From the NCBI GenBank assembly GCA_964642545.1, contig CAZXQU010000001.1, positions 111,797 to 175,796 on the forward strand: DNA of 64,000 nt. The letters are read 5' to 3'. The translations under genes and the position numbers were made by a program. Every line of letters starts with the position of its first letter. Positions within the stretch are counted from its first letter, which is position 1. Shown piece after piece: positions 3,303-62,957 of this stretch. The notes beneath the pieces are model-generated. The model did not search any database and was not told the DNA's origin. It saw only the letters and a program-made list of their open reading frames with translations. The DNA comes from an uncultured Prolixibacteraceae bacterium (GTDB taxonomy: Bacteria > Bacteroidota > Bacteroidia > Bacteroidales > FEN-979).

Positions 3303-3424
3303 AATGAGAAAGAATAATTTTTTATGGTTAAGTTTTAAGAATCCACTGCAAAGATAAATAAATCTTGTTTGGAATGATTCTACACATAAAAGATGTACTT
3401 TTATCTTCTCAAACAGATTTTTGT

Positions 3425-7425: not shown

Positions 7426-7896
7426 ATGAAAATAGTATTTTATCTCCTCGCCATTGCAGCCGTCGTTCTGCTTCTCTGGTCGGGTTGTTCAAGAAATAAC
7501 CCTACTCCCCCCTCTACGGCAGTTTACTCTGTTAATGGCGGGACCACCAGCCATAATAATGGTCAGGTTTGTTTAACCTGTCACAGGACTGGAGGAACCG
7601 GCAAATACAACTTTATTATTGCCGGGTCTGTTTTTAAACAAGATCTTTCCACACCGTCACCAAACGGGATTCTGTACTTCTGGTCGGGATCAGGTGGCAC
7701 GGGAGACCTTATTGCTACGCTACAGGTTGATGCCAACGGTAATTTTTTCACAACATCCTCACTCTTGCCCGGCGAGGGAGCCTATCTACAAATGAGAGGT
7801 ATCTCAGGGGCAGTAAAGACAATGCCTATACTGGCTTATACAGGAGATTGCAACTCCTGTCATGGTGTAAATGAGGATCCGATCTGGATAAACTAA
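7426..7896 (+). CDS. Small lipoprotein with two CxxCH motifs
   Basis: It has a lipobox signal MKIVFYLLAIAAVVLLLWSGC. It carries CLTCHRTGG and CNSCHG. The ATG at 7426 is preferred over the one at 7402. Confidence 0.6.
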   Translation: MKIVFYLLAIAAVVLLLWSGCSRNNPTPPSTAVYSVNGGTTSHNNGQVCLTCHRTGGTGKYNFIIAGSVFKQDLSTPSPNGILYFWSGSGGTGDLIATLQVDANGNFFTTSSLLPGEGAYLQMRGISGAVKTMPILAYTGDCNSCHGVNEDPIWIN

Positions 7897-7915
7897 CCCC
7901 CAAAAATGAGAAGTC

Positions 7916-7956
7916 ATCCCCTTCAGGGGATTTAAGGGCGAGTCGGGGGATTTAGG
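7916..7956 (-). repeat. Two copies of the AAATCCCC(T/C) motif plus a short hairpin, directly after the ftcD stop
   Basis: The minus strand after the ftcD stop reads AACTCCTAAATCCCCCGACTCGCCCTTAAATCCCCTGAAGGGGAT. The hairpin is ATCCCC (7916-7921) / GGGGAT (7926-7931). Confidence 0.4.
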
Positions 7957-7958
7957 AG

Positions 7959-11880: not shown

Positions 11881-11886
11881 TTGAAA

Positions 11887-11928
11887 GATACGAGATGCGG
11901 GATACGCGATGGGAGTCAGGAGGTGGTA
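11887..11928. repeat. Heptamer array (6 units)
   Basis: The units are GATACGA GATGCGG GATACGC GATGGGA GTCAGGA GGTGGTA, starting 7 nt after the stop at 11880. Confidence 0.5.
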
Positions 11929-11995
11929 GTTTTACATTTATATTATCCTAATTATTGAATTTAGCTGTATCTTTATGGAGTAAATAATAATCTTC

Positions 11996-13492
11996 ATGAA
12001 ACGGATCCTATACATCCTTCTTCTCTGCTTTCCCTTTGCATTATCAGCCCAAAACTGGCAGAATATCTGTTCGCCAGGGGTGACACTCTATCAAAACTCC
12101 GGAGGAGAGATTCAGGCATTCAGGCTGGATTCCATTCAGGTGCCAGGCAATGGGGATACCATTTTTTATTCATACCATACCATCAGGGAGACGCAACCGT
12201 GTGCCGACACCTCCCATGGGTCCGTCCTGGGGTTCAAGGTATACAAGACATCTAATGGCTGGTTCTACTTTTTTAACAAATCCTGGGATACGTTGAAGAT
12301 TAACACCAATGCATCATTAAGTGATTCCTGGAAATTCTGTAACCTGCCGGATTCAGGTTTCGTTGAGGCAACAGTTTCAGAGATCGTGACTGACACCATC
12401 CTGGGCATGGCTGATTCAGTGAAAACCATTCTTTTTCAAGCCTACGACTCCACGGGGAATGTTTTAACTCATGTCATCAACGGCCGGACAGTTTCCCTCA
12501 GTAAATCTCATGGCATGACCGTGATGGCAGAGGTCTACCTCCTCCCCGGTGCCTTTTCGAAGTATAAACTTGCAGGAACTACAATTCCGGAAGCCGGTAT
12601 CCCAAATCTGAATGAGCGGTTGGTCTATGATTTTAATGTGGGAGACGAGTTCCATTACCAGGGTGCTGATACATACCAAACTGGGCATGTTACCTGGACC
12701 TACTGGAAAAGGATAATTACGATCCTTTCCAAGCAGATTTCAGCCACCGGTAACGCTTTTATTTACCAGGCAAAGCGATGCACACACTTGGATATCGTCC
12801 CTCCTTTTACCTGGGGACCTCCCTATGTCGAAAATTACCATGACACTATTATACTCGTGTTCCCACGCTCTTCTTCCATTACTGATACTTCACGACTGAA
12901 ACTACCTGGAACGTTTTTTAGAAATGACTTCAGCGTGGCTGCAAATAACTATTTGAGGGATTTCAATGGTCCAAACAACAGACAAAGGCAAATCATCCGA
13001 AAAAATTTCTACCGTTGCCAGGATAGCTGCTGGCTCCCTGAACAGGCGTACCGTGGCTGGAATGAATATGCAGAAGGGATTGGCTGTTTGTTCGATGGAT
13101 GGGGTGTTGAATATACAACAGTCGGTCTACGCATGTTTTACGAAGATAAGCTTGTCTACTATAGGAAAGGAGATGAAGAGTGGGGAACACGACTTGCTGC
13201 TGATTGCGATCAATTGCTGGGAACAGATGAGCTTCAGGTTTCAGGTTCCTGGTTTCAGGTTTTTCTTTATCCAAACCCTCTTCATAACCAGATGACGTTG
13301 ACTATCGAAGGATTTAAACCGGGAATCCGCACCGATTTCATTTTATACGATTTCCTGGGAAGGGAAGTCTACCAAACAGTCATCCGGCAGAATGAGGTAA
13401 CACTAAATCGACCGCCAATACCCAATGGTTTATATATCTGGAAGGTGACAGGCGATCTGGGAACAGCTACGGGGAAGCTGGTGTTGGAATAA
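11996..13492 (+). CDS. Secreted hypothetical protein with T9SS C-terminal sorting domain
   Basis: It has a signal peptide (MKRILYILLLCFPFALSAQ). The C-terminus is FLYPNPLHNQMTL...GLYIWKVTGDLGTATGKLVLE. Confidence 0.7.
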   Translation: MKRILYILLLCFPFALSAQNWQNICSPGVTLYQNSGGEIQAFRLDSIQVPGNGDTIFYSYHTIRETQPCADTSHGSVLGFKVYKTSNGWFYFFNKSWDTLKINTNASLSDSWKFCNLPDSGFVEATVSEIVTDTILGMADSVKTILFQAYDSTGNVLTHVINGRTVSLSKSHGMTVMAEVYLLPGAFSKYKLAGTTIPEAGIPNLNERLVYDFNVGDEFHYQGADTYQTGHVTWTYWKRIITILSKQISATGNAFIYQAKRCTHLDIVPPFTWGPPYVENYHDTIILVFPRSSSITDTSRLKLPGTFFRNDFSVAANNYLRDFNGPNNRQRQIIRKNFYRCQDSCWLPEQAYRGWNEYAEGIGCLFDGWGVEYTTVGLRMFYEDKLVYYRKGDEEWGTRLAADCDQLLGTDELQVSGSWFQVFLYPNPLHNQMTLTIEGFKPGIRTDFILYDFLGREVYQTVIRQNEVTLNRPPIPNGLYIWKVTGDLGTATGKLVLE

Positions 13493-17225: not shown

Positions 17226-19385
17226 ATGAAAAGGATTTGTTTGCTTCTCGTCGCCATCACAACTCTGGGATTCAACACGTTTCCAGGTACTATATCCGCC
17301 GACAAGGCTTCCATGGCAGCTATCCGGTTTATCTCTGAACGGATCTCCCCGGATCTTTTATCAGATGTTGGTGATGTTGCCGTTACGGAAAGTTTTATTA
17401 TCAAGGATCAGGAGATACCTCTTTATTATATTTTCAACCTGATGCCTGAAGGGTGGATTGCCGTTGCTGCTAATGATGCAGTATTCCCAATTCTTGCATA
17501 CTCCTATGAAGGCAGGTATGATGAATTGCGTCAGGCGCCACAATTCCTCGCCTGGATGAAGCAATACGAAGATCAGATCCTGTATGCGATCCGCGGAAAC
17601 GTTTCCCCTTTCCCCGAGACTGTAGAGATGTGGAACAGGCTGTCAGATGCCAGATACCAGATGCCGGATGCCGGATCTAATCCACTCGTCTCTCGTCCAT
17701 CGTCCATCGTCCATCGCAGTATCGAGCCCCTGATAACAACCCACTGGGACCAGAGCCCCTGGTACAATGAACTTTGTCCGGGTGACAATGGAAGCCATTG
17801 TCCGGCCGGGTGCGTTCCCGTTTGCATGGCCCAGGTCATGTACTACTTCAGATGGCCCGAAACCGGAGTGGGTTCGTATACCTACACTGAACCAACATTT
17901 GGCGTATTATCTGCTGATTTCGGGGCCACAACCTACCGGTGGAACGAGATGACCACCAGCATTAACCGGAGTAACCTGGCCATCGCTGAGCTTATTTATC
18001 ACCTGGGAGTCTCATGTGATCTGGAGTATACCCCATCTGGATCGGGCATGTATAACCATAAGGCTGCCTTTTCGTTAAGGACATATTTCAAATATGCTCC
18101 CGAAACCCAATACCTATACCGCGACAGCACCACCCTCAACTGGGACAGCGTTTTGATTGCACACCTCGACAGAAAAATCCCGATGTACTATGCGGGCTGG
18201 TCGGTTCCTAATAGCGACGGCCATGCTTTTGTTTGCGACGGTTACCAAGACTCCTCCTTCTTTCATTTTAACTTTGGATGGGGTGGTAGTAGTGATGGCT
18301 ACTTCTACACGAGCGACCTCACCCCAGGCGGCTACAACTTCAACCTGGCCCAGGAAGTTGTGATCAACTGCTTCCCCGATACGGTAAACTACACCTACCC
18401 CTCGCAGTGCGCCGGCGACCTGGAGTTTACTGCAAAAGTGGGTTCATTTGAAGATGGAAGTGGTCCAGTTGATGATTACTCCCCTGATGCCAATTGCAGC
18501 TGGATGATTGGCCCCCAAACTTTGATCGACTCGGTAACCAGTATCACGTTGACGTTCGACCGGTTTGCCACCAATCCGGCAGATTTTGTTACTGTGTATG
18601 ACGGGAAAACAACAGGCGCGCCTGTTCTGGGTTCCTTTTCCGGAAGCCTTCTTCCTCCCGAAATCACCTCTTCAGGGAATAACATGTTGGTCACTTTTGA
18701 AGCAGGGGAACAACCTCCAGATAATGGCTTTCTAGCCCACTACAAAGCCAACTTGCCGGTTTGGTGCAGCGGAACCACTACAATAACTGCCGACTCAGCG
18801 GAAGTCTCGGATGGTAGCTTCGATTTCAACTATTATAACAACTCCTCTTGTAAATGGAGATTAGAGACCGAAACAGGGGACCCTCTTACCATCTACTTTG
18901 ACTATTTTGATACCGAGGCTAATCATGATTTCCTGACCATTTACGACCTGGAGACAGGAGATACTCTGGTGAGTTTATCAGGAGAATACACTTCGGGCAA
19001 CCATCCTGATTCAGTTACCTCACCCAGCGGAAAGATGTTTCTCATCTTCACGACGAATAGTACCATTACATTTAATGGCTGGAAGATCCACTACCCGAAA
19101 AAGTCCAACATCGGCATCACAGAACAAAACGGCATCCGGAACCTTCAGCTCTTCCCAAATCCGGCATCAGAGGTTGTTACTATCTCTTTCACTTCAGCCA
19201 AAACATCACACATTCACTTGACCCTTCTCTCTTCTGATGGGCGTATCGTTCGTGAATTAAGCTTGGAAGCGATTTCAGGGAAGAATACAAAAGAGACTGA
19301 TATTTCAGAGATAAAGCCTGGAATCTACATCCTGCAACTTACAGGTGACTTGGGAACAGCGGTAGAGAAGCTGGTGGTTAACTAA
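17226..19385 (+). CDS. Peptidase C10 paralogue with CUB-like domains and T9SS CTD
   Basis: 719 aa with the same architecture as the upstream gene. It has PAGCVPVCMAQVMYYFRWPETGVG and GHAFVCDGY, CUB-like modules (NCSWMIGP; SCKWRLET), and the CTD LFPNPASEVVTISF...GIYILQLTGDLGTAVEKLVVN. Confidence 0.85.
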   Translation: MKRICLLLVAITTLGFNTFPGTISADKASMAAIRFISERISPDLLSDVGDVAVTESFIIKDQEIPLYYIFNLMPEGWIAVAANDAVFPILAYSYEGRYDELRQAPQFLAWMKQYEDQILYAIRGNVSPFPETVEMWNRLSDARYQMPDAGSNPLVSRPSSIVHRSIEPLITTHWDQSPWYNELCPGDNGSHCPAGCVPVCMAQVMYYFRWPETGVGSYTYTEPTFGVLSADFGATTYRWNEMTTSINRSNLAIAELIYHLGVSCDLEYTPSGSGMYNHKAAFSLRTYFKYAPETQYLYRDSTTLNWDSVLIAHLDRKIPMYYAGWSVPNSDGHAFVCDGYQDSSFFHFNFGWGGSSDGYFYTSDLTPGGYNFNLAQEVVINCFPDTVNYTYPSQCAGDLEFTAKVGSFEDGSGPVDDYSPDANCSWMIGPQTLIDSVTSITLTFDRFATNPADFVTVYDGKTTGAPVLGSFSGSLLPPEITSSGNNMLVTFEAGEQPPDNGFLAHYKANLPVWCSGTTTITADSAEVSDGSFDFNYYNNSSCKWRLETETGDPLTIYFDYFDTEANHDFLTIYDLETGDTLVSLSGEYTSGNHPDSVTSPSGKMFLIFTTNSTITFNGWKIHYPKKSNIGITEQNGIRNLQLFPNPASEVVTISFTSAKTSHIHLTLLSSDGRIVRELSLEAISGKNTKETDISEIKPGIYILQLTGDLGTAVEKLVVN

Positions 19386-19417
19386 TTTCCTACTTTCCTA
19401 CTTTCCTACTCACTCTC
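19386..19417. repeat. Octamer array bridging two convergent stop codons
   Basis: The units are TTTCCTAC TTTCCTAC TTTCCTAC TCACTCTC. It starts at the base after the TAA at 19383-19385 and contains the minus-strand stop (rc of 19406-19408). Confidence 0.7.
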
Positions 19418-19825
19418 CGGCGTATAAAGGATATCAATCTCCCCCTTATTCTCCAGACACTCCATCAACTTGCTTTTAAGTTTCCAGCAGGTCATCTGGC
19501 GGATTTCAAGTTGACGGGAGAGCTCGTATGAGGATATTTTCGGGTTGGAGCAAACCATGTAGACCATGTTGAATGCCTCTGTAATAGGGATATGGCATCG
19601 GTGAAAAATGGTGTTCGCAGTAGCCGATTCTTCGCTTTTACAGCGAGTACAACGTCTTGAGTAAGGTGTCTTTCCCTTGCAGTAATTTGAATGTCCGCAT
19701 TTCTTACAGACAAATCCCTTTGCCCATTTTTGCTCGGAAAGAAACTGAAGGCACTCTTCGTCGGTTGCAAATCGGACCGCAAATTTTTCAATATCTAGAG
19801 ACTTGAACAAATGTTTCAATTTCAT
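19406..19825 (-). CDS. IS1595-type transposase zinc-ribbon domain protein lacking a DDE catalytic domain
   Basis: 139 aa. CKKCGH...CTRC is a four-Cys ribbon followed by a helix-rich segment, as in the N-terminal region of IS1595-family transposases. No DDE domain ORF and no terminal inverted repeats were seen nearby. Confidence 0.55.
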   Translation of the reverse strand: MKLKHLFKSLDIEKFAVRFATDEECLQFLSEQKWAKGFVCKKCGHSNYCKGKTPYSRRCTRCKSEESATANTIFHRCHIPITEAFNMVYMVCSNPKISSYELSRQLEIRQMTCWKLKSKLMECLENKGEIDILYTPESE

Positions 19826-20970: not shown

Positions 20971-21579
20971 ATGACCCTACTCCTCCCCACCGCCTATCTC
21001 CCTCCCATCTCATACATTTCCACTTGTGCTGCTGCGGATGAGATCCTGATTGAAGCGTGGGAAACCTATCCCAAACAAACACTACGGAACCATTGTGAAA
21101 TTGGCGGGCCCAACGGCAGATTAAGGCTGACAATTCCGGTTAACAAACCCAACGGGAATCGTACCAAAACAAAGGATGTCAGGATTGCTTCTCACCTCCA
21201 TTGGCAGAAGATCCATTGGAGATCGTTTGAGGCCGCATACAACAAATCACCATTTTTCCTTTATTACCAGGATTATCTTGTTCCATTTTACGAGAAGAAC
21301 TTTGATTTTCTCCTGGATTTTAACCTGCAACTTCTTGAAACTCTCTTCCAGGCTATCCGCCTTTACAAATCTGTAACAACAACAGATTCATTTGAGGATG
21401 CCCCCCCAGGTATAACCGACCTCAGAAATCAATGGGTAGTTGGCAGTCGGCAGTCAGCAGTCGGCGGTCTTCCGGAGTATTACCAAGTGTTTGCTGACCG
21501 ACAGGGGTTTCTTAAAGATCTGAGTATCGTGGATTTGCTGTTTAATTTAGGTCCGGAGACCTTGGCTTATCTCGAATAA
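20971..21579 (+). CDS. WbqC-like family protein
   Basis: MTLLLPTAYLPPISYI...WETYPKQTLRNHCEIGGPNGRLRLTIPV...WQKIHWRSFEAAYNKSPFFLYY resembles the WbqC family. The track start at 20899 lies inside the terminator and array, so the ATG at 20971 is preferred. Confidence 0.7.
   Translation: MTLLLPTAYLPPISYISTCAAADEILIEAWETYPKQTLRNHCEIGGPNGRLRLTIPVNKPNGNRTKTKDVRIASHLHWQKIHWRSFEAAYNKSPFFLYYQDYLVPFYEKNFDFLLDFNLQLLETLFQAIRLYKSVTTTDSFEDAPPGITDLRNQWVVGSRQSAVGGLPEYYQVFADRQGFLKDLSIVDLLFNLGPETLAYLE
21437..21471. repeat. Heptamer array inside the wbqC-like coding sequence
   Basis: The units are TAGTTGG CAGTCGG CAGTCAG CAGTCGG CGGTCTT. They encode WVVGSRQSAVGGL. Confidence 0.6.
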
Positions 21580-22935: not shown

Positions 22936-22943
22936 TAATTTTG
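22936..22943 (+). promoter_or_regulatory. -7 promoter box TAATTTTG
   Basis: It matches TAnnTTTG, 26 nt upstream of the TTG start at 22969. Confidence 0.4.
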
Positions 22944-22968: not shown

Positions 22969-25371
22969 TTGTCAACTCTTCTCGATTTACGTCAAGGTGA
23001 ATCTGCAGAGATCATCAAGATCAGAGGGCGGGGGCATTTCCGCCGTCGCCTGATGGAGATGGGATTTGTAAAAGGGAAAGAGATCACCGTAGTCAAATCA
23101 GCACCCCTGCAGGATCCAATCGAGTACAAATTAATGGGTTATCATGTGTCGTTAAGGCAGAGTGAAGCCCAACTTGTTGAAGTACTCAAGGTGAACGATA
23201 CAAGGCATGATGAAGAGTCCGTGGAAACTGTCGGAAATTTAAATGTGACACTTCAGGAAGAGTTACAGAAAGCTAAAGCCAGGGAAAAGGGAAAGACGAT
23301 TGAGGTCGCCCTGGTTGGAAATCCAAACTGCGGAAAAACGACGTTATTCAATTTCATCTCAAAGTCGAAAGAGCATGTTGGCAACTTCGGCGGAGTAACG
23401 GTCGACTCTAAAACAGCCTCTTTTAAGCAAAACGGATACAGGTTCGAGATCACCGATCTGCCTGGCACCTATTCGCTGTCGGCTTACTCACCAGAAGAAT
23501 TATTCGTGCGAACCCATATATTTATGGAGATGCCCGACATTGTGGTCAACGTTGTGGATGCTTCAAACCTGGAGCGAAACCTTTTCCTCACTACACAGCT
23601 GATTGACATGGATATTCGGGTAGTACTGGCGCTTAACATGTACGATGAGTTAACCGGCGGCGGTGATATTCTGGATCATGAAGAGCTTGGGAAACTACTC
23701 GGGATTCCGGTAATTCCTACCGTGAGTTCCAAAGGCAAAGGGGTAAGGGAGCTCTTCGACCGGATCATTGAAGTATATGAAGACCGCGACCCGGTGATGC
23801 GTCACATCCATATCAATTATGGTATTGAGATAGAACGCTCGTTAGCTAGAATACAGGATGTAATCTGGCAAGACAAAACACTAACACTAAAGGTCTCATC
23901 ACGATATTATGCCATCAAACTCCTGGAGAAAGATCCTAATATCTCCAGAAATCTGATGAAGAGTAGTATTTATAATGAATTGCTGGGAGTTGTTGATCAG
24001 GAAATAGAGCGCCTGGAGCGGATCTATCGTGAAGACTCAAATACCCTCATCACTGATGCCCGATACGGGTTTATTGCAGGTGCTTTGAAGGAGACGCTGA
24101 AAGTGGATGCATCAGGTCAGAAAATTCGTAGAAAGAGCGATTCCATTGACCGGCTATTAACAGGCAAATACTTCGGGTTTCCACTTTTTCTGTTCTTCCT
24201 CTGGTTCATGTTCCAAACTACTTTTTCATTGGGAGAGTACCCCAAACATTGGATCGAAATTGGTGTCGGATGGCTTGCTGGTGAAGTTAGTACCCTGATG
24301 CCTCCAGGGCCCCTTAAAGACCTGCTGGTAGATGGGGTAATCAACGGGGTAGGTAGTGTGATCGTGTTCCTGCCGAATATCCTTATACTTTTCTTCTTTA
24401 TCTCGATCATGGAGGATACCGGGTACATGTCCAGGGCAGCCTTTATCATGGATAAATTGATGCACAAGATGGGGCTTCACGGACAATCTTTCATCCCCCT
24501 GATCATGGGATTTGGCTGCAATGTCCCCGCCATCATGGTCACACGAACCATCCGAAACCGGAATGACCGTCTGGCCACAATGCTCATCAACCCATTCATG
24601 TCTTGTAGTGCACGGTTACCAGTATACATACTGATTGCAGGAGCCATCTTCCCCGACCACGCCGGGACAGTCATATTCCTGATCTATTTGACTGGGATTG
24701 TCCTGGCTGTATTGGTTTCACTGATTTTCAAGAAAACACTCTTTAAAAGTACTGAAGCCCCCTTTGTGATGGAACTTCCACCCTACCGCATCCCAACCCT
24801 TCGCGTCAGTTTGCGCCACATGTGGGAAAAAGGGCAACAATACCTTAGAAAGATGGGTGGGATTATCCTTGTTGCTGTCATCATCATCTGGGCTCTGGAA
24901 TATTTTCCTGCCGGAAGCCAGGTGCCACACCAGGAACGATTGGAAAGATCCTATATCGCCAAAATCGGAAAGTTCATTGAACCAGTGATAAAGCCTCTTG
25001 GCTTTGACTGGAAAATGGGAGTAAGTCTGATAACGGGGGCAGCAGCCAAAGAGGTTGTAGTAAGCACCATGGGAGTTCTTTATGGCTCTAACCACCAACC
25101 CGATGGCAGCCCGAAACAGAACCTCCCACTCATCCTTCAGAACGCCAGGTATGCCGACGGGCCTCAGATCGGCAAGCCGATTTTCACACCACTTGCCGGT
25201 ATATCATACCTGCTCTTTATCCTGGTTTACATGCCATGTGTTGCTGTGATCATCACCGTTAGCCGTGAGTCGGGAAGCTGGAAGTGGGCCCTTTTCCTAA
25301 TCCTCTATACAACGGTTCTAGCCTGGCTCTTATCTTTTTCTGTATACCAACTGGGAAGCCTTCTCACCTGA
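22969..25371 (+). CDS. feoB: Ferrous iron transporter, FeoA-FeoB fusion
   Basis: 800 aa. The N-terminal FeoA domain has LRQGESAEIIKI...GFVKGKEITV. The FeoB G-domain has VALVGNPNCGKTTLFN and DLPG. A multi-pass permease follows. Confidence 0.9.
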   Translation: MSTLLDLRQGESAEIIKIRGRGHFRRRLMEMGFVKGKEITVVKSAPLQDPIEYKLMGYHVSLRQSEAQLVEVLKVNDTRHDEESVETVGNLNVTLQEELQKAKAREKGKTIEVALVGNPNCGKTTLFNFISKSKEHVGNFGGVTVDSKTASFKQNGYRFEITDLPGTYSLSAYSPEELFVRTHIFMEMPDIVVNVVDASNLERNLFLTTQLIDMDIRVVLALNMYDELTGGGDILDHEELGKLLGIPVIPTVSSKGKGVRELFDRIIEVYEDRDPVMRHIHINYGIEIERSLARIQDVIWQDKTLTLKVSSRYYAIKLLEKDPNISRNLMKSSIYNELLGVVDQEIERLERIYREDSNTLITDARYGFIAGALKETLKVDASGQKIRRKSDSIDRLLTGKYFGFPLFLFFLWFMFQTTFSLGEYPKHWIEIGVGWLAGEVSTLMPPGPLKDLLVDGVINGVGSVIVFLPNILILFFFISIMEDTGYMSRAAFIMDKLMHKMGLHGQSFIPLIMGFGCNVPAIMVTRTIRNRNDRLATMLINPFMSCSARLPVYILIAGAIFPDHAGTVIFLIYLTGIVLAVLVSLIFKKTLFKSTEAPFVMELPPYRIPTLRVSLRHMWEKGQQYLRKMGGIILVAVIIIWALEYFPAGSQVPHQERLERSYIAKIGKFIEPVIKPLGFDWKMGVSLITGAAAKEVVVSTMGVLYGSNHQPDGSPKQNLPLILQNARYADGPQIGKPIFTPLAGISYLLFILVYMPCVAVIITVSRESGSWKWALFLILYTTVLAWLLSFSVYQLGSLLT

Positions 25372-25372
25372 T

Positions 25373-25570
25373 ATGTGGCAATACCTCATCACCGGACTGA
25401 TTGTCACTGCTGCAATAACTTATACAGTTTATCGCCTGATCAAATATTTCACTGATCCCCTTCGGAAGTGCAAGAACTGCGCCAACTCATGTGGGGGCTG
25501 CGCCCTTGAGGAGTTGAAAAAGACGAGGGACGAAGGACGAGGGACGAAGGACGTGAGACGTGAGACGTGA
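25373..25570 (+). CDS. FeoB-associated Cys-rich membrane protein
   Basis: 65 aa. It has one TM helix followed by CKNCANSCGGC, and starts 2 nt after feoB. The last 16 residues (RDEGRGTKDVRRET) are encoded by the heptamer array. Confidence 0.7.
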   Translation: MWQYLITGLIVTAAITYTVYRLIKYFTDPLRKCKNCANSCGGCALEELKKTRDEGRGTKDVRRET

Positions 25571-27563: not shown

Positions 27564-27618
27564 AAAGGCTTTGATATTGCTCATATGTTCGTAATTTTGA
27601 TGATCTAAAAAAACCTCC

Positions 27619-28428: not shown

Positions 28429-28448
28429 CCCCTAAATCCCCTAAAGGG
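28429..28448 (+). repeat. AAATCCCCT motif copy immediately after a stop codon
   Basis: CCCCTAAATCCCCTAAAGGG starts at the base after the TAG at 28426-28428. Confidence 0.4.
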
Positions 28449-28510
28449 TACTTACTCCTGTTAAGAGGGATTTCCTTCCTGAGTGCTCGGGAGAGGATTA
28501 AGGAGGGGTC

Positions 28511-33369: not shown

Positions 33370-33373
33370 TTGT

Positions 33374-33401
33374 AAGGGATTAGCGATTAGGGATTAGGGA
33401 C
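33374..33401. repeat. Heptamer array (ATTAGGG family)
   Basis: The units are AAGGGAT TAGCGAT TAGGGAT TAGGGAC, 5 nt upstream (gene sense) of the start codon at 33367-33369. Confidence 0.7.
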
Positions 33402-33456
33402 AAAATTAGTAAAATTATAGGACTGCTCATCATTGCTTATCATTGATCATCTCAGC

Positions 33457-33496
33457 GATTTTCATATTTTCCTAATTTCCTAATTTCCATCACGTC
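33457..33496. repeat. Octamer array running into the aroA stop codon
   Basis: The units are GATTTTCA TATTTTCC TAATTTCC TAATTTCC ATCACGTC. The last unit is the rc of GACGTGAT, whose TGA is the aroA stop (33490-33492). Confidence 0.7.
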
Positions 33497-34815
33497 TCGC
33501 TTACTTCAAACCCCAACCTCCCCATCTCTTCCCAGAAGCCAGGATAAGATTTTGCTACAACCGCAGGGTCTGAGATGCGGATGGTTCCGGTTCTGATCGC
33601 AAGCAATGCAAAGGCCATTGCGATGCGGTGGTCACTGTAGGTCTTTATGATCTCTTGAGGATAAGCTCCTGGGGCAGGGTCAATAGATTGAGATGCGTCG
33701 GTTTCAATGATGCCGAATGCCGGATGCCGGATATCAATCTGCAATCGGCCCAACTCTTTGACAAGGGCTTCAAGGCGGTCACTCTCTTTGGTTTTCAAAT
33801 GATGAAGTCCGGTAAATCGGGCAGCTATCCCAAGCACAGCATAAGTTACAATGAGGGATGGGGCGAGATCGGGATAAGCAGCAAGGTCAAAAGCAGGCTG
33901 CCAACTGCCAACTGCTAACTGCCCACTGCCCACTGCCCACTTCCCACTGATCAATCGTATTCCATCACTTTCAAAAACAGTCTCTACTCCCAATGGCCGG
34001 AAAAGCTCTGCCAACACGGCATCTCCCTGCAGGCTGTTTTTATGCAGACCGGGTAGTGTGAGTTCCGCGGAGCCGGCAAGGGCTGCAGCTTCATACCAGA
34101 AAGCGGCTGAGGACCAGTCGGCCTCCACAGTGTACTTTTCTGTTAGTCGTGCTTCAGCCTGGTAACTTCCGTGTTTGACGAGCAGGAGCTCCTCGTTTCT
34201 CTTGATAACTGCTCCAAACTCCTCCATAATGCGCAGCGTCATATCTACATATGGAAAAGAGACCTGATCACCCACCATACGGATCGTGAGACCTTCGGGA
34301 AGTAACGGAGCTATTAAAAGAAGAGCCGAAACAAACTGGCTGCTCACCGAAACATCTACTGTCACCTCCCCTCCAGAAAGCTGCCTGCCAATGATGCGCA
34401 GCGGAGGATACCCTGCTATTCCTTCATAGTCGATCTCTGCACCCAGGCTTCTGAGTGCCTCCACCAGGATGCCGATTGGCCTTCTTTGCATCCGTTCACT
34501 GCCGGAAAGAAGCCATGTTCCCGGTTGAATTGCGAGGTATGCAACGAGGAAACGCATCACGGTACCGGCATTGCAGCAGTTAAGAGAAATATGCTGATTG
34601 GGCTGAGCCGATTCAATCTGCTTCAATAACTCCTGAAGCAATAAGGTATCTTCGGCTTTGGAGAGGTTTTCAAACTGGAAGTCGGAACGAGCCAGTGCGC
34701 GGATGATAAGGAGTCTGTTGCTGATACTCTTTGACGAAGGGAGTGATATTCTGCCAGCCAGGTTTACCCCTTCAACTTCGTGGATATTTTTTCCTGTAAT
34801 CGTGTAGCTGGTCAT
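33490..34815 (-). CDS. aroA: 3-phosphoshikimate 1-carboxyvinyltransferase (EPSP synthase)
   Basis: It has LPSSKSISNRLLIIRALA, GTVMRFL and KESDRLEAL. The start is moved to the ATG at 34815 (MTSYTITGK), which avoids a 32-nt overlap with aroB. Confidence 0.9.
   Translation of the reverse strand: MTSYTITGKNIHEVEGVNLAGRISLPSSKSISNRLLIIRALARSDFQFENLSKAEDTLLLQELLKQIESAQPNQHISLNCCNAGTVMRFLVAYLAIQPGTWLLSGSERMQRRPIGILVEALRSLGAEIDYEGIAGYPPLRIIGRQLSGGEVTVDVSVSSQFVSALLLIAPLLPEGLTIRMVGDQVSFPYVDMTLRIMEEFGAVIKRNEELLLVKHGSYQAEARLTEKYTVEADWSSAAFWYEAAALAGSAELTLPGLHKNSLQGDAVLAELFRPLGVETVFESDGIRLISGKWAVGSGQLAVGSWQPAFDLAAYPDLAPSLIVTYAVLGIAARFTGLHHLKTKESDRLEALVKELGRLQIDIRHPAFGIIETDASQSIDPAPGAYPQEIIKTYSDHRIAMAFALLAIRTGTIRISDPAVVAKSYPGFWEEMGRLGFEVSET
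33894..33949. repeat. Heptamer array (8 units) inside the aroA coding sequence
   Basis: The plus strand reads CAGGCTG CCAACTG CCAACTG CTAACTG CCCACTG CCCACTG CCCACTT CCCACTG. In the aroA sense this is the CAGTGGG family and encodes SGKWAVGSGQLAVGSWQPA. Confidence 0.85.
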
Positions 34816-34825
34816 TGAGCGGCTA

Positions 34826-35929
34826 TCAGAGGTTATAATAGCTTGCAAAGGCATCACGGATTTGATCCGGTGTACAAACCTGATTGATCCTGCCTTTCCC
34901 GATTTCGGAGAGCAGGGTGAACCGGATCTCCTGCTGCCTGTTTTTCTTATCGTGCTGCATCATATCCATGCGTACCGCTTCATCTTCCTGAAGGAGTGGA
35001 AGCTTACCGAATCCCTGGATAATCCACTTAGTAACTTCTTCCAGTTGTTGGGGGTCGAATCCGGCTCGTTGTATGGATAAAAAGCCCTCGCAGAGCATGC
35101 CGGCAGCCACTGCATCACCATGCAGAACCGGAGTTTCCCGCCGAAGTGCGAGCGACTCAATCGCATGGCCGATGGTATGGCCGAAGTTCAGTAATTTCCT
35201 CTGGTTCTGTTCAAATGGATCATGCTTCACGATCTCAAGTTTTATCCGGATCGTCTTCAGAAGAATATCTTTCCAGAAATTCTCTGTAAACGGAATCTCA
35301 AGGATCTCTGATAATGGCTTCCGTGAAAGCCATCTCCAGAACTGCTCATCCCGGATCAATGCTGTTTTGAGAACTTCGGCTAGCCCGGATCGTATCTGTT
35401 CTGCAGGAAGTGTTTTTAGAAATCCTGGCCAGATATAAACCGCTCTGGGGGTATAAAAAGTTCCAACCTGATTTTTCAGGACATCCATGTTTACACCGGT
35501 CTTTCCTCCAATTGAAGCATCGATCTGTCCTATCAGAGATGTAGGGACATGAATGGTGTCAATACCTCGATGATAAGAGGATGCGACGAAACCTCCCAGG
35601 TCGGTCACCACACCACCACCCAGATTGATGAGGAGAGAATCTCTGTCGGCCTGATGAGATCCCAACTCTTTCCAAAGGTACTCTGCGGTTCGCAGGCTCT
35701 TAACTTCCTCTCCGGTATCAATGCTAAATACTGTTGCAGTATCCAACTCAGGGATGTGGCCGAGGAGCTCGGGAAGGCAGAAACGTTGGGTATTGGCATC
35801 AGTAAGAATAAAAATCCGCGGTTTCAACTTCCTAAGTCGCTTCAGATCCTTCTGAAATTGTTCCATAATCCCATCGCCAATCAGGACAGGGTATTTGGAG
35901 GTATTTACGGTACGGATTGAAAGCTTCAT
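34826..35929 (-). CDS. aroB: 3-dehydroquinate synthase
   Basis: It has GGGVVTDLGGFVASSYHRGIDTIHVPTSLIGQIDASIGGKTGVN and the metal ligands HTIGHAIE. Confidence 0.9.
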   Translation of the reverse strand: MKLSIRTVNTSKYPVLIGDGIMEQFQKDLKRLRKLKPRIFILTDANTQRFCLPELLGHIPELDTATVFSIDTGEEVKSLRTAEYLWKELGSHQADRDSLLINLGGGVVTDLGGFVASSYHRGIDTIHVPTSLIGQIDASIGGKTGVNMDVLKNQVGTFYTPRAVYIWPGFLKTLPAEQIRSGLAEVLKTALIRDEQFWRWLSRKPLSEILEIPFTENFWKDILLKTIRIKLEIVKHDPFEQNQRKLLNFGHTIGHAIESLALRRETPVLHGDAVAAGMLCEGFLSIQRAGFDPQQLEEVTKWIIQGFGKLPLLQEDEAVRMDMMQHDKKNRQQEIRFTLLSEIGKGRINQVCTPDQIRDAFASYYNL

Positions 35930-54564: not shown

Positions 54565-54570
54565 AAAATA

Positions 54571-54586
54571 AAATCCCCTTTAGGAG
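54571..54586 (+). repeat. AAATCCCCT motif copy just after the purD stop
   Basis: AAATCCCCTTTAGGAG begins 7 nt after the TGA at 54562-54564. Confidence 0.35.
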
Positions 54587-54589
54587 CTT

Positions 54590-54624
54590 ATTCGTAACTC
54601 TTAATTCGTAATTCGTAATTTAAA
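54590..54624. repeat. Heptamer array (5 units) abutting a GTG start
   Basis: The units are ATTCGTA ACTCTTA ATTCGTA ATTCGTA ATTTAAA, followed by the GTG at 54625. Confidence 0.7.
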
Positions 54625-59035: not shown

Positions 59036-59980
59036 CTATCTCATTCTCAATACTTTTCCTGTCGGAGGTTCATAACCGTCAGGAAGAAGATTTTTACGAT
59101 AGAGGTTTTCCAGGCGGATTCCATAAACCTGGGAAATTTCCCACAAGGTTTGATTGGTTCCAACAACGTGCACTTTTTGGATGGCTTTTCGCTTCTTTTT
59201 CTCAAGGTAAACCGCTTGTCCTGATTTCAAGCCACCGGCACGTTTTAGATCATTAAAATCCATCAGGTCTGATGCACTAAGCCGAAAATCACGTGCAATC
59301 TTCAGAAGGTCGTCGTTATCGAGGGCAAAGGTACATTGGACATGATTATTGATATAGACTTTCCGGTTGTTTGGACCCGGGCCAAAGTAGGTAAATAAGG
59401 ACTTGTAGGCCTCCATCAGGTTGCCATCGGCCACAGTAGTTATTATTGCCGGAACCTCTCCTTCGGGAAGATCATATGCTTGAAGGGAGTAACGTTCGAT
59501 CAGACTGATCAGCAGATCAGGATATTTAGGGTTAGTGGCATAGCCAGCTGTTTTCAGTCCATAAGCCCATGCCCGGTAGTTTTGAACATCAATTGAGAAG
59601 AGAAAATTATACCGATCACGGGTTGACAGGAACTCTGAATGATCGCGAAATGACTCAACTGCATTATCGTATTTCCGGAAGCATTCATCTGGTGAATCAT
59701 CATCCATCCGGTAGGTTTTACCCGTCCACTCATTATGACATTTGATCCCGAAATGGTTGTTGGCTTCCCTGGCAAGTGTACTCTGGCCAGCTCTTGACTC
59801 CAGAATAGCCTGGGCTAGTTTGATGCTGGCAGGGATACCATACGTTCGCATGTCCTGTATCGAGATTCCCTTATAGGCATCAATGTATGCACGAACCTTC
59901 TCATCGTACGAGGATTGAGAAAGCGCTGAGAGGGATGAGAAGACCAGGATTAGCAGGAGGTAGCGGGAGAAGGAGGTCAT
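59036..59980 (-). CDS. Glucosaminidase-domain peptidoglycan hydrolase with LysM domains
   Basis: It has a signal peptide and GIPASIKLAQAILESRAGQSTLAREANNHFGIKC (mannosyl-glycoprotein endo-beta-N-acetylglucosaminidase domain). C-terminal LysM-like segments are present (HVVGTNQTLWEISQVYG). Confidence 0.85.
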   Translation of the reverse strand: MTSFSRYLLLILVFSSLSALSQSSYDEKVRAYIDAYKGISIQDMRTYGIPASIKLAQAILESRAGQSTLAREANNHFGIKCHNEWTGKTYRMDDDSPDECFRKYDNAVESFRDHSEFLSTRDRYNFLFSIDVQNYRAWAYGLKTAGYATNPKYPDLLISLIERYSLQAYDLPEGEVPAIITTVADGNLMEAYKSLFTYFGPGPNNRKVYINNHVQCTFALDNDDLLKIARDFRLSASDLMDFNDLKRAGGLKSGQAVYLEKKKRKAIQKVHVVGTNQTLWEISQVYGIRLENLYRKNLLPDGYEPPTGKVLRMR

Positions 59981-60127
59981 AGTTTCGGGTTTCGTGTTTC
60001 GGGTTTCGTGTTTCGGTTCACTAGTTAACGGTTATCCGTATTTCGTATTTCGTATTTCTCTTCACGTCTCACATCTCACGTCTCACATCTCACGTCTTAC
60101 GTCTTACGTCTTACGTCTTACGTCCCC
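59981..60127. repeat. Heptamer array, 21 units (147 nt) in one unbroken register
   Basis: The units are AGTTTCG GGTTTCG TGTTTCG GGTTTCG TGTTTCG GTTCACT AGTTAAC GGTTATC CGTATTT CGTATTT CGTATTT CTCTTCA CGTCTCA CATCTCA CGTCTCA CATCTCA CGTCTTA CGTCTTA CGTCTTA CGTCTTA CGTCCCC. It begins at the base after the start codon (rc of 59978-59980). It contains the murD-like stop (rc of 60104-60106) and its last 7 codons. Confidence 0.9.
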
Positions 60128-61498
60128 TATTACAAGTTCAATGAACCTGAATCCACGTTCTTCAAAGCTCCTGAATTCGTCGTAGCTAGATGCAGCCGGT
60201 GACAGCAGGCAAGTCGCCCCAGCCCTCGTATTCTCCAGTGCAAGTGGTAAGAGGTGGTCGAATCGGTTGATATAAAACAGGTTTTTCCTCGATTTTATTG
60301 TTTCGTCTGTCTTTTCAATTACGTTTCCAATCCTTCGGCCTGCTGCTCCAATGAAAATCAACGTACGCACCTGTGAATGGATCAGGAATCGGGCAAACGC
60401 CTCATAGCTAACACCTCGGTCAAATCCTCCCAGGATCAGGGTATCCACATCGGAGAGAGATTGTACAGCGGCTATGGAAGCTTCGGGAATCGTTGCAATA
60501 GAGTCGTTCACCCAATGAATGGCGTGGTGATACCCCACGTATTCCATCCGATGAGCCAGCCCTTTGAAGGAAGCCAGTCCATCGAGGATCGCTTCTTCTT
60601 TGACTCCCAGAAGCCAGCTGGCAGTGACAGCTGCCATGATATTCCTGAAGTTGTGCTCCCCTTTCAGATAACGGTTGTGGAATTCGTGTACAACAAGTTC
60701 ATCCCTCCCCGGCACCCTGATAATAAGTTCGTCTCTCCTTTTAAAAGCGCCTGTTTCGAATTCGTGCTGCAGGGAAAGGGGGATGAGTGATGGGGGGATA
60801 GTTTGAATATGTGCTGCAATGATTGGGTCGTCGGCATTGTAAAGAAGGAAATCGCCGATAGCCTGGGTTGTTGCTATCTTCATTTTGGCCTTCTGGTAAT
60901 CGTAGTATGAGTTGTAAGCATCCAGGTGTTCTTCGAAAATATTGAGCAACAACGCGATGTGCGGTCCACGGTGGATATATTCAAGTTGATGTGATGAGAG
61001 TTCGTCGACAATGAAAGTTTGTGGGGTGATCAGATCCAGGAAGTGCCAGGCTGGCGTTCCGATATTGCCCAGCAAGACACTCTCCTTCCCATCGGTAGTT
61101 AGGATGTGTGCAATCAGGCTGCTTGTTGTACTCTTCCCTTTGGTCCCCGTAATACCGATAATTTGTTTAGCAAAGGCTTCAAGGAAGATATCCGTCTGAG
61201 AAGTGATTCTGGACATGTCAACGGAGGGCTTCAACTTTGCGAGTGAAATGCCGGGTGATTTAAGGATTAATTCGAACCTGTCCAATCCGTAGAGGTAATC
61301 TTTGCCGCACTGGAATTCAATGTTGTGATCATCAACAAGAAGTGAACTTTTCGCCACATCGGGGTTGCTGTCGGCAATCCATATCTTTTGATGGGGACAC
61401 AGTTTCCTGATTGACTGATACGATGACTCCCCTTCCCGGCCGAAGCCTAAGAGAAGAATTTTTTTCCCTTCCAATCGCCGGCGAAGTAAATCAACCAT
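60104..61498 (-). CDS. murD: MurD-family UDP-N-acetylmuramoyl-L-alanine--glutamate ligase (candidate MurD2 type)
   Basis: 464 aa with KILLLGFGREGES (Rossmann-like N-domain) and the Mur ligase P-loop ITGTKGKSTTSSL. It is not in a division/cell-wall cluster. It overlaps the upstream PP-loop gene by 8 nt. Confidence 0.8.
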   Translation of the reverse strand: MVDLLRRRLEGKKILLLGFGREGESSYQSIRKLCPHQKIWIADSNPDVAKSSLLVDDHNIEFQCGKDYLYGLDRFELILKSPGISLAKLKPSVDMSRITSQTDIFLEAFAKQIIGITGTKGKSTTSSLIAHILTTDGKESVLLGNIGTPAWHFLDLITPQTFIVDELSSHQLEYIHRGPHIALLLNIFEEHLDAYNSYYDYQKAKMKIATTQAIGDFLLYNADDPIIAAHIQTIPPSLIPLSLQHEFETGAFKRRDELIIRVPGRDELVVHEFHNRYLKGEHNFRNIMAAVTASWLLGVKEEAILDGLASFKGLAHRMEYVGYHHAIHWVNDSIATIPEASIAAVQSLSDVDTLILGGFDRGVSYEAFARFLIHSQVRTLIFIGAAGRRIGNVIEKTDETIKSRKNLFYINRFDHLLPLALENTRAGATCLLSPAASSYDEFRSFEERGFRFIELVIGDVRRKT

Positions 61499-62903
61499 TG
61501 ACGGCTCCTTTCAGCAGTTCTTCGAATTGGGGAGGAAGGAAGTTTTGAGAGTCCCATGCTTTGAGGAGGGAAGGGAGGGAGGGAGGGAGTATGTCAGTAG
61601 GTTGCTTAGTCGCTATGCTCTTGGCAAAGACAAGGGGTTTGATACTTGCATAGTAGTGAAGGAGTGTGGGTAACGGTTTGTTTCCAAATTGTGCGATTAT
61701 TTCTTGTAGGGCAGCGTTGACTTCAGAGATAGTGCCTACGCATTCGAAGGGTTTTTCGGGGGCTATTCCGGTAAGTTGATCAAGGATCGGGACCAGGTCT
61801 ATGTCGTTAAACAGGTCCCTGTGAAAGATCCCTGTCAGTTGATCAGGAAGCAGGAATGGTGCCACCATAATGCACGTAAAAAGGCATTTTGGGCATTTTC
61901 CACACCATGAATCAGTTTTGCTTCCTACATTACAACTTTTGAAAACAGAGAAATATTTCGGATAGCGACAAAAAATGCTGGCAATCTGAAGTTCGTTTAG
62001 TGGTCGGAGAAGGCTGAAATAATTGATTTCGGGACTGATCCATTTACGTACATAATCCCGGAAATCCTTCTCAAACTCAAATGTTTTAGAGTACTGGTGA
62101 TTGACAGGCAAGCCTGGGATGGTTGATTCGTTGGCGCTTGATTCATTTGAAAGAGCGATATTTCTCTTCCCGGAGAGTGCAGCAGAGAGGATGGTAATAA
62201 ACGCGAGTAAAGCCGAAAAGGGGGTGTGACCATTGAGAAATCCCTGATCATTTAATTGCAAAAGAAGAGGATCAATAGTACGATTGATCCCAATCATTCC
62301 CGAATGGGCGAACCCAGCTATGAATATACTGTGTACACTGGCTCCCCGTGGGTTGAGGATAAGAGGTGTGACACCAGGAAGTTTCCTGAGTATTTCAAGG
62401 CTTACAATAGAATCTTTACCCCCGCCAATAGGGACGATCACATCAGGTTTTAATACACATTGGATTGGAGAAAGAAATTCGTCAGAAGCCACTATAACAT
62501 CCATAAATTGGTCAATATCTGTCGGGATTGAGTTGAGGAAAAAAAACTCTCCCAAACCGTTAAACCAGCATTTTTTCCACCATGATATTTGTTCTTGAGT
62601 GATGGCATGTGCCTTGATTATCAGCTGTTTCGGACAAGCTGACTTCCAATAACTGATGAGTTCAATCAGCCCCAGATGAAAGACAAGGTTCGGGAGGAGA
62701 TCCATGACCTCCTCTTCGGGAATGAAAAATTCTTTGTGCGGAATAAAAATGGTTGGTGAAAAATGGTACCGATCGGCCAGGTTGAAATAATAACGAATAT
62801 CTAATCCATGCCCTGAGTAGCTATAATCATACCCTTCATAGGAAAAAAAAGGAAATTCATCCCTGAGTTGCAGGAATTTATCATAACGGTTTGACTTCTC
62901 CAT
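61491..62903 (-). CDS. PP-loop ATP-pyrophosphatase-like protein, candidate MurL (UDP-MurNAc-L-Ala-L-Glu epimerase)
   Basis: 470 aa with a PP-loop-like PIGGGKDS and a CGKCPKC cysteine motif. It is translationally coupled (8-nt overlap) to the murD-like gene. The assignment rests on gene context and the ATP-utilising motif, not on a similarity search. Confidence 0.45.
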   Translation of the reverse strand: MEKSNRYDKFLQLRDEFPFFSYEGYDYSYSGHGLDIRYYFNLADRYHFSPTIFIPHKEFFIPEEEVMDLLPNLVFHLGLIELISYWKSACPKQLIIKAHAITQEQISWWKKCWFNGLGEFFFLNSIPTDIDQFMDVIVASDEFLSPIQCVLKPDVIVPIGGGKDSIVSLEILRKLPGVTPLILNPRGASVHSIFIAGFAHSGMIGINRTIDPLLLQLNDQGFLNGHTPFSALLAFITILSAALSGKRNIALSNESSANESTIPGLPVNHQYSKTFEFEKDFRDYVRKWISPEINYFSLLRPLNELQIASIFCRYPKYFSVFKSCNVGSKTDSWCGKCPKCLFTCIMVAPFLLPDQLTGIFHRDLFNDIDLVPILDQLTGIAPEKPFECVGTISEVNAALQEIIAQFGNKPLPTLLHYYASIKPLVFAKSIATKQPTDILPPSLPSLLKAWDSQNFLPPQFEELLKGAVNG

Positions 62904-62913
62904 GAAATGGTAC

Positions 62914-62921
62914 TATATTTG
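62914..62921 (+). promoter_or_regulatory. -7 promoter box TATATTTG
   Basis: It matches TAnnTTTG, 37 nt upstream of the ATG at 62958. Confidence 0.45.
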
Positions 62922-62957
62922 CTAGGTGGCTCTCGCAAATGTAACAAATTTTAGATT

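Follow-up and report, generated by a model that had tools for sequence, protein, structure and literature searches.

The DNA analysed here is a 64,000-nt stretch from an uncultured Prolixibacteraceae bacterium (contig CAZXQU010000001.1, positions 111,797 to 175,796), referred to below in its full length as the window. On its minus strand, the gene for a peptidoglycan hydrolase with a glucosaminidase domain follows murD, and a 147-nt array of tandem heptamers (59981-60127) runs from the glucosaminidase start codon into the end of murD. How did such an array come to fill the spacer, and does it carry signals for the expression of the two genes? To our knowledge, the intergenic heptamer repeats noted in scattered bacteria since 2007 have no accepted origin or function. 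We consider it probable that this array is a composite of heptameric simple sequence repeats (SSRs), of the kind called long SSRs (LSSRs), that was generated by slippage, was filtered by selection, and has swollen an operon-internal spacer of about 10 nt. The result for the murD-glucosaminidase spacer is deflationary: the array appears ordinary for this genome, and on sequence grounds no special promoter or terminator signals seem to be needed.

Repeat structure of the array

The position of the array, its 21 heptads, and the four unit families given in a preliminary description of this DNA agree with the sequence. The first base of the array, 59981, is the one past CAT (59978-59980), the complement of the glucosaminidase ATG. 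On the plus strand, units 1-5 read AGTTTCG, GGTTTCG, TGTTTCG, GGTTTCG, and TGTTTCG; units 6-8 GTTCACT, AGTTAAC, and GGTTATC; units 9-11 CGTATTT three times; unit 12 CTCTTCA; units 13-16 CGTCTCA, CATCTCA, CGTCTCA, and CATCTCA; units 17-20 CGTCTTA four times; and unit 21 CGTCCCC. Read in the sense of the genes, the parts are the following:

59981-60015, minus strand: family 1, CGAAAC(A/C) five times in sense ((G/T/A)GTTTCG on the plus strand), adjoining the glucosaminidase ATG
60016-60036, minus strand: linker of 21 nt, essentially non-repetitive, with unit-to-unit matches of 2, 2, 5, and 3 of 7
60037-60057, minus strand: family 2, AAATACG three times in sense (CGTATTT on the plus strand)
60058-60064, minus strand: one degenerate unit, CTCTTCA on the plus strand, with 2/7 and 4/7 matches to its neighbours
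60065-60092, minus strand: family 3, four units alternating GACGTGA and GATGTGA in sense, a 14-nt higher-order repeat
60093-60127, minus strand: family 4, GACGTAA four times in sense, plus one degenerate unit

The identity of the array with itself at lag 7 is 0.74, against 0.29 ± 0.036 (maximum 0.42) in 5,000 shuffles. Tandem Repeats Finder (TRF) splits the array in three (59982-60016, 60037-60058, and 60062-60124), with scores of 56-84, and resolves family 1 as period 14 with 2.5 copies and 100% match, which is a perfect 14-nt higher-order repeat. This family forms an A/C-rich, G-poor leader of the glucosaminidase gene, with A at position -3. Family 3 contains two AUGUGA start-stop mini-ORFs (open reading frames), and the linker holds the overlapping palindromes ACTAGT and GTTAAC. 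A repetitive extragenic palindrome (REP), MITE (miniature inverted-repeat transposable element), CRISPR-type, or other inverted-repeat nature was rejected, the units being direct 7-mers and the inverted-repeat content of the array a single 10-nt palindrome, in the linker.

Family 4 also encodes the end of MurD. As had been described, the last six residues, DVRRKT (60107-60124), and the TAA (60104-60106) of the 60104-61498 ORF lie inside the array, and they come wholly from GACGTAA units (GAC GTA AGA CGT AAG ACG TAA). TAA occurs in all three frames within any three such units, so a change in copy number cannot extend MurD. The match to the MurD profile TIGR01087 stops at residue 456 of 464; in an alignment with two relatives, conservation ends at ...ERGFRFxEL(I/V), and the short tail beyond differs in each genome.

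The single unbroken register previously claimed for the array stands in part. Families 2, 3, and 4 share the phase CGT.T.. and match one another at 4-6 of 7 positions at rotation 0. Family 1 is off by 2 nt: it matches family 2 at 6/7 positions when rotated by 2 nt and at 3/7 in the phase used in the preliminary description. In sense, the two families read ACGAAAC and ACGAAAT, both of the ACGAAAn group that forms the array at the orthologous junction of a relative (L001), where most units are of family 2 (AAATACG). The rotated phase is therefore the homologous one, and indexing by it, a check that had been proposed at the outset, breaks the register by 2 nt within the linker. For unit families that are unrelated, the phase can be chosen at will. 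The spacer had also been said to contain no non-repeat sequence; instead, the linker and unit 12 contribute 21 and 7 nt of it. For units 6-8, 12, and 21, agreement with the adjoining units is at 2-5 of 7 positions (in most cases 2-3), where about 2 are expected at random.

A 63-aa plus-strand ORF at 59994-60185 is almost certainly spurious and exists because the antisense of the array has no stop codons. It illustrates a lesson for annotation: arrays of this type give rise to spurious ORFs and displace the predicted starts and stops, misleading gene callers, and they break short-read contigs.

Arrays across the window

The array had been presented as a singular feature, yet it is one case of a genome-wide, lineage-specific habit. 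Our census covers 64 kb of this genome and about 70 kb from relatives, a part of each genome rather than the whole. At a moderate threshold, the window (46% G+C, Bacteroidota-like, with TAnnTTTG boxes in its spacers) contains 19 arrays of period 7 and 7 of period 8, with hardly any of another period, where composition-matched block shuffles give about 0.05 arrays. The scan by period returned 19-21 arrays of period 7, 7-8 of period 8, and one of period 10. Many spacers are almost wholly made of arrays, and at a slightly looser threshold 22 of 30 arrays fall within intergenic DNA, which makes up ~7% of the window. With about 4 arrays per 10 kb, many unit families, and periods of both 7 and 8, this lineage is an unusually clear case of heptamer proliferation.

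Several unit families recur at separate sites. The ACGTCTC/GACGTGA family is found at 25550, 45387, and 60062; the ATTCGTA family at 28519, 30422, and 54590; the TTTCCTAA family at 20932, 33460, and 37227; the ATTAGGG family at 13493 and 33375; and the CAGTGGG family at 33898 and 45335.

Promoter-like -7 boxes at 22936-22943 and 27592-27599 (plus strand) are set in TTCGTAATTTTG, a sequence similar to the ATTCGTA unit; that these contexts are the seed of the ATTCGTA family is a loose idea.

The same junction in related genomes

A metagenome scan returned 42 further loci. The two closest genome records are metagenome-assembled genomes, one from Bacteroidales and one from an uncultured Prolixibacteraceae, so that most of the phylogenetic picture comes from metagenome contigs with no taxonomy attached. 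The order DUF179 gene, murL, murD, glucosaminidase gene, 934-aa gene, rnhB, DUF6427 gene, and purD is kept throughout loci L001-L008. Relatives at about 66-77% MurD identity have other arrays at the murD-glucosaminidase junction, and two others have a short spacer of 9-11 nt:

L001: ACGAAAG/ACGAAGT/ACGAAAT in 11-13 units, followed by unique sequence of about 43 nt
L002/L003: a small number of GACGAAG-type units; CCCGAAAtt ahead of the ATG (CCCGAAAct in the window)
L004: CTGGATGA nine times, then CTGGATC three times, then CTTGAAC five times, making up the whole spacer, with the murD TGA inside
L008: GATGTAA/GACGTAA five times, with the murD TAA inside
L006/L007: spacer of 11 nt, free of arrays
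L009 (50% identity): likewise array-free, with a spacer of 9 nt
More distant relatives: another gene as neighbour, in convergent orientation, with an ordinary hairpin

In L004, the period passes from 8 to 7 by the loss of 1 nt, with the homology still visible, and L006 keeps two units (GTTGAAC CTTGAAT) where L004 has five CTTGAAC. The C/T alternation of family 3 recurs in the GATGTAA/GACGTAA units of L008. These comparisons suggest that arrays grow from, or shrink to, local seeds, with a fast turnover at a given site.

The tendency to carry arrays also seems to differ between sister genomes. Array density per 10 kb is 4.1 in the window, 5.2 in L004, 6.0 in L005, 2.2 in L001, 2.3 in L008, and 1.5 in L002; L006/L007 and most relatives at ≤50% identity have none. 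A rough neighbour-joining tree of four concatenated proteins, without support values, places L006 as sister to L004, inside the array-rich clade; over the syntenic ~17 kb, there are nine period-7/8 arrays in L004 and none in L006/L007. With an array-free sister genome of this kind, comparing whole genomes could put the cause of heptamer proliferation to the test.

An unrelated metagenome contig with 66% GC (L040, MurD 26% identical) has one composite, [GGA(T/G)ACA]n and then [CG(A/G)ACGA]n, at each of three successive mur operon junctions (5187-5247, 6724-6785, and 7893-7965). The junctions are co-directional, and the three composites are purine-rich in sense. Composite arrays at operon junctions are thus a more general occurrence.

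Probable transcription through the array

The genes and the promoter region concerned are the following:

59036-59980, minus strand: downstream cistron, encoding a glucosaminidase + LysM peptidoglycan hydrolase that has a signal peptide
60104-61498, minus strand: murD (UDP-MurNAc-L-Ala--Glu ligase), with its C-terminal tail and stop within the array
61491-62903, minus strand: murL-like epimerase gene, the first cistron, overlapping murD by 8 nt
62904-62957: array-free divergent promoter spacer between the DUF179 gene and murL, with back-to-back TAnnTTTG boxes

The murL-like product scores 245 bits with NF041275, below its cutoff (700 bits), and contains the Pfam domains MurL_N and MurL_epimerase_C (PF26299 and PF26298). 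The murL and murD arrangement is that of the route to peptidoglycan D-Glu by an L-Glu ligase plus an epimerase, as in Xanthomonadales.

The divergent spacer is nearly invariant in all seven genomes of the clade compared. Its -7 box TACATTTG (62936-62943, minus strand) serves murL, and TATATTTG (62914-62921, plus strand) serves the DUF179 gene. The former is the only gene-strand TAnnTTTG upstream of the glucosaminidase gene, the next one being inside that gene: from 59981 to 62935 the minus strand has no match to TAnnTTTG (-33 TTTG), and no sigma-70-like promoter was matched in or beside the array. A promoter within the array was rejected on these grounds. On either strand of 59981-60127 there is no terminator-like hairpin with a T-run, nor is there one next to the array, and Rfam covariance models gave no match at E ≤ 1 over 59500-60600. 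The sense RNA of the array has no significant structure compared with its shuffles (z = -1.4), with an almost unpaired centroid; its sole "structure", a weak ladder of self-complementary ACGU tetramers, is no better than in shuffles. A terminator or attenuator hairpin in the array was likewise rejected.

Of the two possibilities that had been offered, co-transcription through the array or signals in the array itself, the first gains support from the shared strand of murL, murD, and the glucosaminidase gene, the murL/murD overlap, the 9-11 nt spacers of relatives, the lone upstream -7 box, and the lack of a terminator-like hairpin. Since the promoter lies upstream of murL and no signals were found near the array, murL-murD-glucosaminidase is most likely a single transcript that runs through it. 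The second possibility is not supported: in close relatives unrelated unit families stand in place of the array, which shows no promoter motif, Rfam match, or significant structure.

Positional rules at stops and starts

Counted over the window and five relatives, arrays follow clear rules according to the gene end that they adjoin:

Arrays nearest a stop codon (n = 17): sense strand purine-rich in 14, stop triplet in 12, ATG in 4
Arrays nearest a start codon (n = 14): sense strand purine-rich in 4, stop triplet in 7, ATG in none

The difference in purine-richness (14/17 vs 4/14) is significant (Fisher, p = 0.004). The first units of an array supply the stop codon, and in some cases the final residues as well, of murD, the ORF at 25373-25570, lpxD-like, DUF4440, and Wzy_C genes, and the gene at 19406-19825. 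Proteins unrelated to one another thus owe their stops and a short C-terminal tail to arrays, such as DVRRKT in MurD and DVRRET in a small FeoB-associated protein. Neither 7 nor 8 shares a factor with 3, so once a unit holds a stop triplet, every frame is closed within three units and a change in copy number cannot extend the protein. If selection acts against harmful arrays, those found at 3' ends would be the ones with a sense-strand stop triplet.

Start-proximal arrays are G-poor, AUG-free, and unstructured. Initiation regions (-40 to +20) preceded by arrays are predicted to fold at -3.9 kcal/mol, compared with -7.2 kcal/mol for ordinary non-coding leaders (p = 0.015). Array leaders do not differ overall in structure from their own shuffles (p = 0.36), so their low structure is mostly compositional. 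The glucosaminidase initiation region, at -1.15 kcal/mol, is the third least structured of 52 genes, and it is below its shuffles in structure (-1.15 vs -4.5 kcal/mol). Bacteroidetes ribosomes ignore Shine-Dalgarno sequences, and their initiation is adjusted through weak structure, an A at position -3, and a scarcity of AUG near starts (Baez et al. 2019, PMC6847099; PMC7797042). Unstructured, AUG-free arrays near starts would fit this Shine-Dalgarno-independent initiation.

On the minus strand of the window, a -7 box, TAATTTTG (33401-33408), is directly followed by a CCCTAAT array (33375-33400) and then by an ATG at 33369. In this region (33370-33489), the array appears to be the entire predicted 5' untranslated region (UTR).

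Comparison with known heptamer-repeat systems

LSSRs, with units of 5-11 nt among which heptamers dominate, have been attributed to polymerase slippage (Mrazek, Guo and Shah 2007, as reported in PMC4679880 and PMC4692102). As far as they are described in these two papers, they resemble the repeats studied here in several respects. Both are head-to-tail direct repeats of 5-11 nt, longer than expected by chance; both are over-represented with a dominant period of 7 and are mostly intergenic, a bias seen here within the 64 kb and the ~70 kb of relatives; and both have a sporadic, lineage-specific distribution, with length and sequence that vary at orthologous sites. Indirect signs of slippage are the perfect 14-nt higher-order repeats, the succession of unit families, and the two-unit relic in L006. 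Measured against the same descriptions, the repeats differ in that period 8 is a strong second class (7/26 arrays) and several unrelated unit families occur per genome, even per spacer; a Bacteroidales/Prolixibacteraceae-like lineage is not among the repeat-rich genomes named in PMC4679880 and PMC4692102. The array is a new lineage and new unit families within the known LSSR class and belongs to no named family.

The GGGAATC repeats of Xanthomonas and the GGGGA(T/C)T repeats of Nostoc are ~90% intergenic and near the upstream ORF (Rehm et al. 2015, PMC4692102). Like the arrays described here, they lie between the same genes in relatives and vary in length and sequence (PMC4692102); unlike them, they are single G-rich families able to form G-quadruplexes, whereas our array units have no G-tracts. 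We rejected this class, as the 64-kb window has no tandem GGGAATC or GGGGATT and the units of the array contain no GGG.

TAACTGA direct repeats are known from marine Beggiatoaceae, some Cyanobacteria, and five Bacteroidetes, and other heptamer repeats were seen beside them in spacers of Gramella and Aequorivita (MacGregor 2015, PMC4679880). The likeness is considerable: heptamers within a few nt of starts, stop triplets in the unit, few Shine-Dalgarno sites, and presence in some relatives but not in close ones (PMC4679880). In Beggiatoaceae, however, one family dominates, whereas there are many here, and our arrays are at least as often anchored at stops. Membership was rejected, with four singletons and no tandem pairs of TAACTGA in 64 kb.

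The short tandemly repeated repetitive sequences (STRR1-3) of cyanobacteria have the units CCCCAGT, TTGGTCA, and CAACAGT. They also are several heptamer families dispersed in the intergenic DNA of one genome, but in another phylum and with other sequences; judged by these units, of which the window holds no tandem pair, membership was rejected. Heptanucleotides of Calothrix are among the repeats cited in PMC4692102.

Origin of the array and alternative explanations

In the explanation that we favour, replication slippage or unequal exchange would amplify a 7-nt seed from local sequence. Point mutations in one unit, amplified in turn, would give the successive families and the perfect 14-nt higher-order repeats, and selection would remove the arrays that are harmful to expression. 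The conserved promoter upstream of murL would give one mRNA for murL, murD, and the glucosaminidase gene, with the array transcribed as part of it. The main effect of the array is probably on translation, in which the coupling expected over the 9-11 nt of relatives would give way to independent initiation of the glucosaminidase gene on an open, A/C-rich leader. Judging by the predicted folding, the array probably uncouples glucosaminidase translation from murD. The perfect 14-nt periodicity, a mark of recent block duplication, speaks for the proposed origin, as do the many yet labile arrays of this lineage, their replacement at one and the same junction, the in-frame insertions in genes, the lack of signals in the array, and the positional rules at stops and starts.

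Several points weigh against this explanation. Identical-family pairs at non-orthologous sites number 10 for heptamers, where 0.26 are expected, and 3 for octamers, where 0.008 are expected. Such recurrence is not predicted by pure local slippage and hints at preferred seeds, inter-locus copying, or a sequence-specific partner; contig L040 repeats the same two-family composite at its three mur junctions. The all-or-none difference between sister genomes suggests a genome-level trans-acting determinant of array proliferation. Copy number does not change among four assemblies at ~99.97% identity, and the ATTCGTA array in the purD/DUF6427 spacer (54565-54624 in the window, 12919-12981 in L001) has an equal unit count and is 88% identical, compared with ~74% for coding DNA. 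Thus, arrays are not uniformly hypermutable, and this one may be constrained or its region recently exchanged. Lastly, the co-transcription and the translational effect are drawn from motif scans and folding predictions.

The recurrence of a few unit families far above chance would also be expected if the arrays were cis-elements of a post-transcriptional network, in which a single-strand RNA-binding protein with a footprint of 7-8 nt (S1-, cold-shock-, or KH-type) reads the families in UTRs and sets the translation or stability of the adjacent cistron, here the glucosaminidase gene. We hold this to be unlikely. The strand asymmetry of arrays relative to the flanking genes is in keeping with it, but is largely explained by the stop-triplet and AUG-avoidance filters. 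Arrays do adjoin start codons, and the one at 33375-33400 is a whole predicted 5' UTR; yet families are swapped wholesale between close relatives, L006/L007 and L009 have no array at the junction, and arrays also occur as in-frame insertions in enzymes. The same proposal has been made for TAACTGA repeats (PMC4679880), and the repeated composite of L040 would suit it, but no candidate binder was found. Functional evidence for heptamer repeats is thin and consists of reporter effects in Nostoc, where deletion of a heptamer repeat alters the output (bioRxiv 10.1101/2022.06.06.494920).

A somewhat smaller probability is kept for a lineage-specific trans-acting system of which the arrays would be products or targets, that is, a factor that seeds or copies 7/8-nt families at gene ends, a reader that binds single-stranded nucleic acid, or both. 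We keep it because of the family recurrence, the all-or-none sister difference, and the long stability of some arrays. Arrays could then be modular elements of 3' UTRs (purine-rich, stop-bearing) and 5' UTRs (G-poor, AUG-free). If this were true, the murD-glucosaminidase array would be an operon-internal module of translational control, and comparative genomics of L004 and L006/L007 could reveal the determinant.

The chance is slim that the array is an unconventional internal promoter, terminator, or attenuator, for example by Rho loading at CGAAAC(A/C), with the glucosaminidase gene as a separate transcription unit. The spacer is 123 nt long, and the RNA of family 1 has more C than G and is unstructured, as in a rut site; the stop-proximal part, however, has more G than C, unlike a rut site. 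The genome is often without hairpin terminators at convergent junctions (three convergent spacers are all array, and two others are 3 and 7 nt long). Against an internal signal, no TAnnTTTG, sigma-70-like match, or hairpin with a T-run is present, the array sequence is unconserved among relatives while the real promoter spacer is conserved, and the 9-11 nt spacers of relatives imply an ancestral operon.

Less probable still is a contingency (phase-variation) locus, at which gain or loss of heptamers would alter the spacing or the MurD tail and so switch hydrolase expression. Tandem repeats are prone to slippage, the downstream gene encodes a cell-envelope enzyme, and array length at the junction varies between species. 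The array also shares with the phase-variable SSR loci of Haemophilus and Neisseria the short tandem repeats near gene ends, able to slip in principle (PMC2651432, PMC12721329), but those loci have mostly units of 1-5 nt, lie in frames or between promoter elements, and are length-polymorphic, none of which holds here. No repeat-number polymorphism was seen across the consensus sequences of the four independent assemblies, which come from different samples and differ by 4 points in 13.9 kb. Nor does unit number alter a frame or a promoter spacing, since TAA is met in any frame within three units, so that the MurD frame cannot shift, and no promoter elements flank the array. Housekeeping genes across the whole window, too, have arrays of this kind beside them.

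An assembly expansion or collapse, which the preliminary description had raised against itself, has a negligible probability: although two short-read k-mer contigs (the Logan contigs L045 and L046) break inside the GACGTGA/GATGTGA block, their proximal 111 nt are identical to the array, its whole 147 nt are base-for-base identical in contigs from other samples (L047, a k141 MEGAHIT contig from ENA, and L048, from JGI), its length is constant among strains with 4 differences in 13,897 positions, and homologous arrays stand at the same junction in five other genomes.

Arrays within genes and minor observations

Arrays also occur inside coding sequences, an essential enzyme included. In EPSP synthase (33490-34857, minus strand), in-frame insertions of 7 and about 11 aa relative to PDB 5xwb fall exactly at two heptamer arrays (33709-33732 and 33898-33949), which coincide with gaps in the alignment. 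The gene ends in ...GAGACGTGA, a single GACGTGA unit. Further in-frame heptamer arrays lie within real genes at 17644-17716 (linker between I69 inhibitor and C10 peptidase domains), 21438-21469 (WbqC-like protein), and 13233-13262 (Por_Secre_tail protein of type IX secretion). Blind repeat insertion with a reading-frame filter explains the in-gene arrays better than purpose-built spacers would.

Among relatives, octamer arrays are found in the 3' part of murL (L002 5886-5917, L004 7866-7928, and L005 6633-6732, with up to 12.5 copies in L005), and octamers of the ACCTCGCT family in the signal-peptide region of the glucosaminidase gene (L002 7527-7572 and L008 9518-9551).

Directly past feoB (22969-25371), an uncalled 65-aa ORF (25373-25570, plus strand) matches PF12669 (FeoB-associated Cys-rich membrane protein) weakly, at 20.6 bits, below the cutoff. 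Its last ~20 residues and TGA come from a GACGAGG/GACGAAG/GACGTGA array, and it ends in DVRRET*, a tail nearly identical to the DVRRKT* of MurD and read from the same unit family.

Just beyond the window and about 5 kb from murL, contig L047 encodes a 207-aa cold-shock-domain protein (3080-3703). Cold-shock proteins have been put forward as binders of heptamer repeats (PMC4679880); for this gene there is no evidence of a link.

Repeats of another class, REP/MITE-like palindromes that start with CCCCTAAATCCCCTAAAGGG... and end with ...GGATT(T/A)AGGAG(GGG), occupy several spacers, with examples at 7897-7958 and 28429-28510 of the window; relatives have them as well, L002 and L008 in the stretch that separates the glucosaminidase gene from the 934-aa gene. 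Between the glucosaminidase and the convergent 934-aa genes of L004, and in none of the other genomes, there is a 1.6-kb insertion with long inverted ends (10502-12136).

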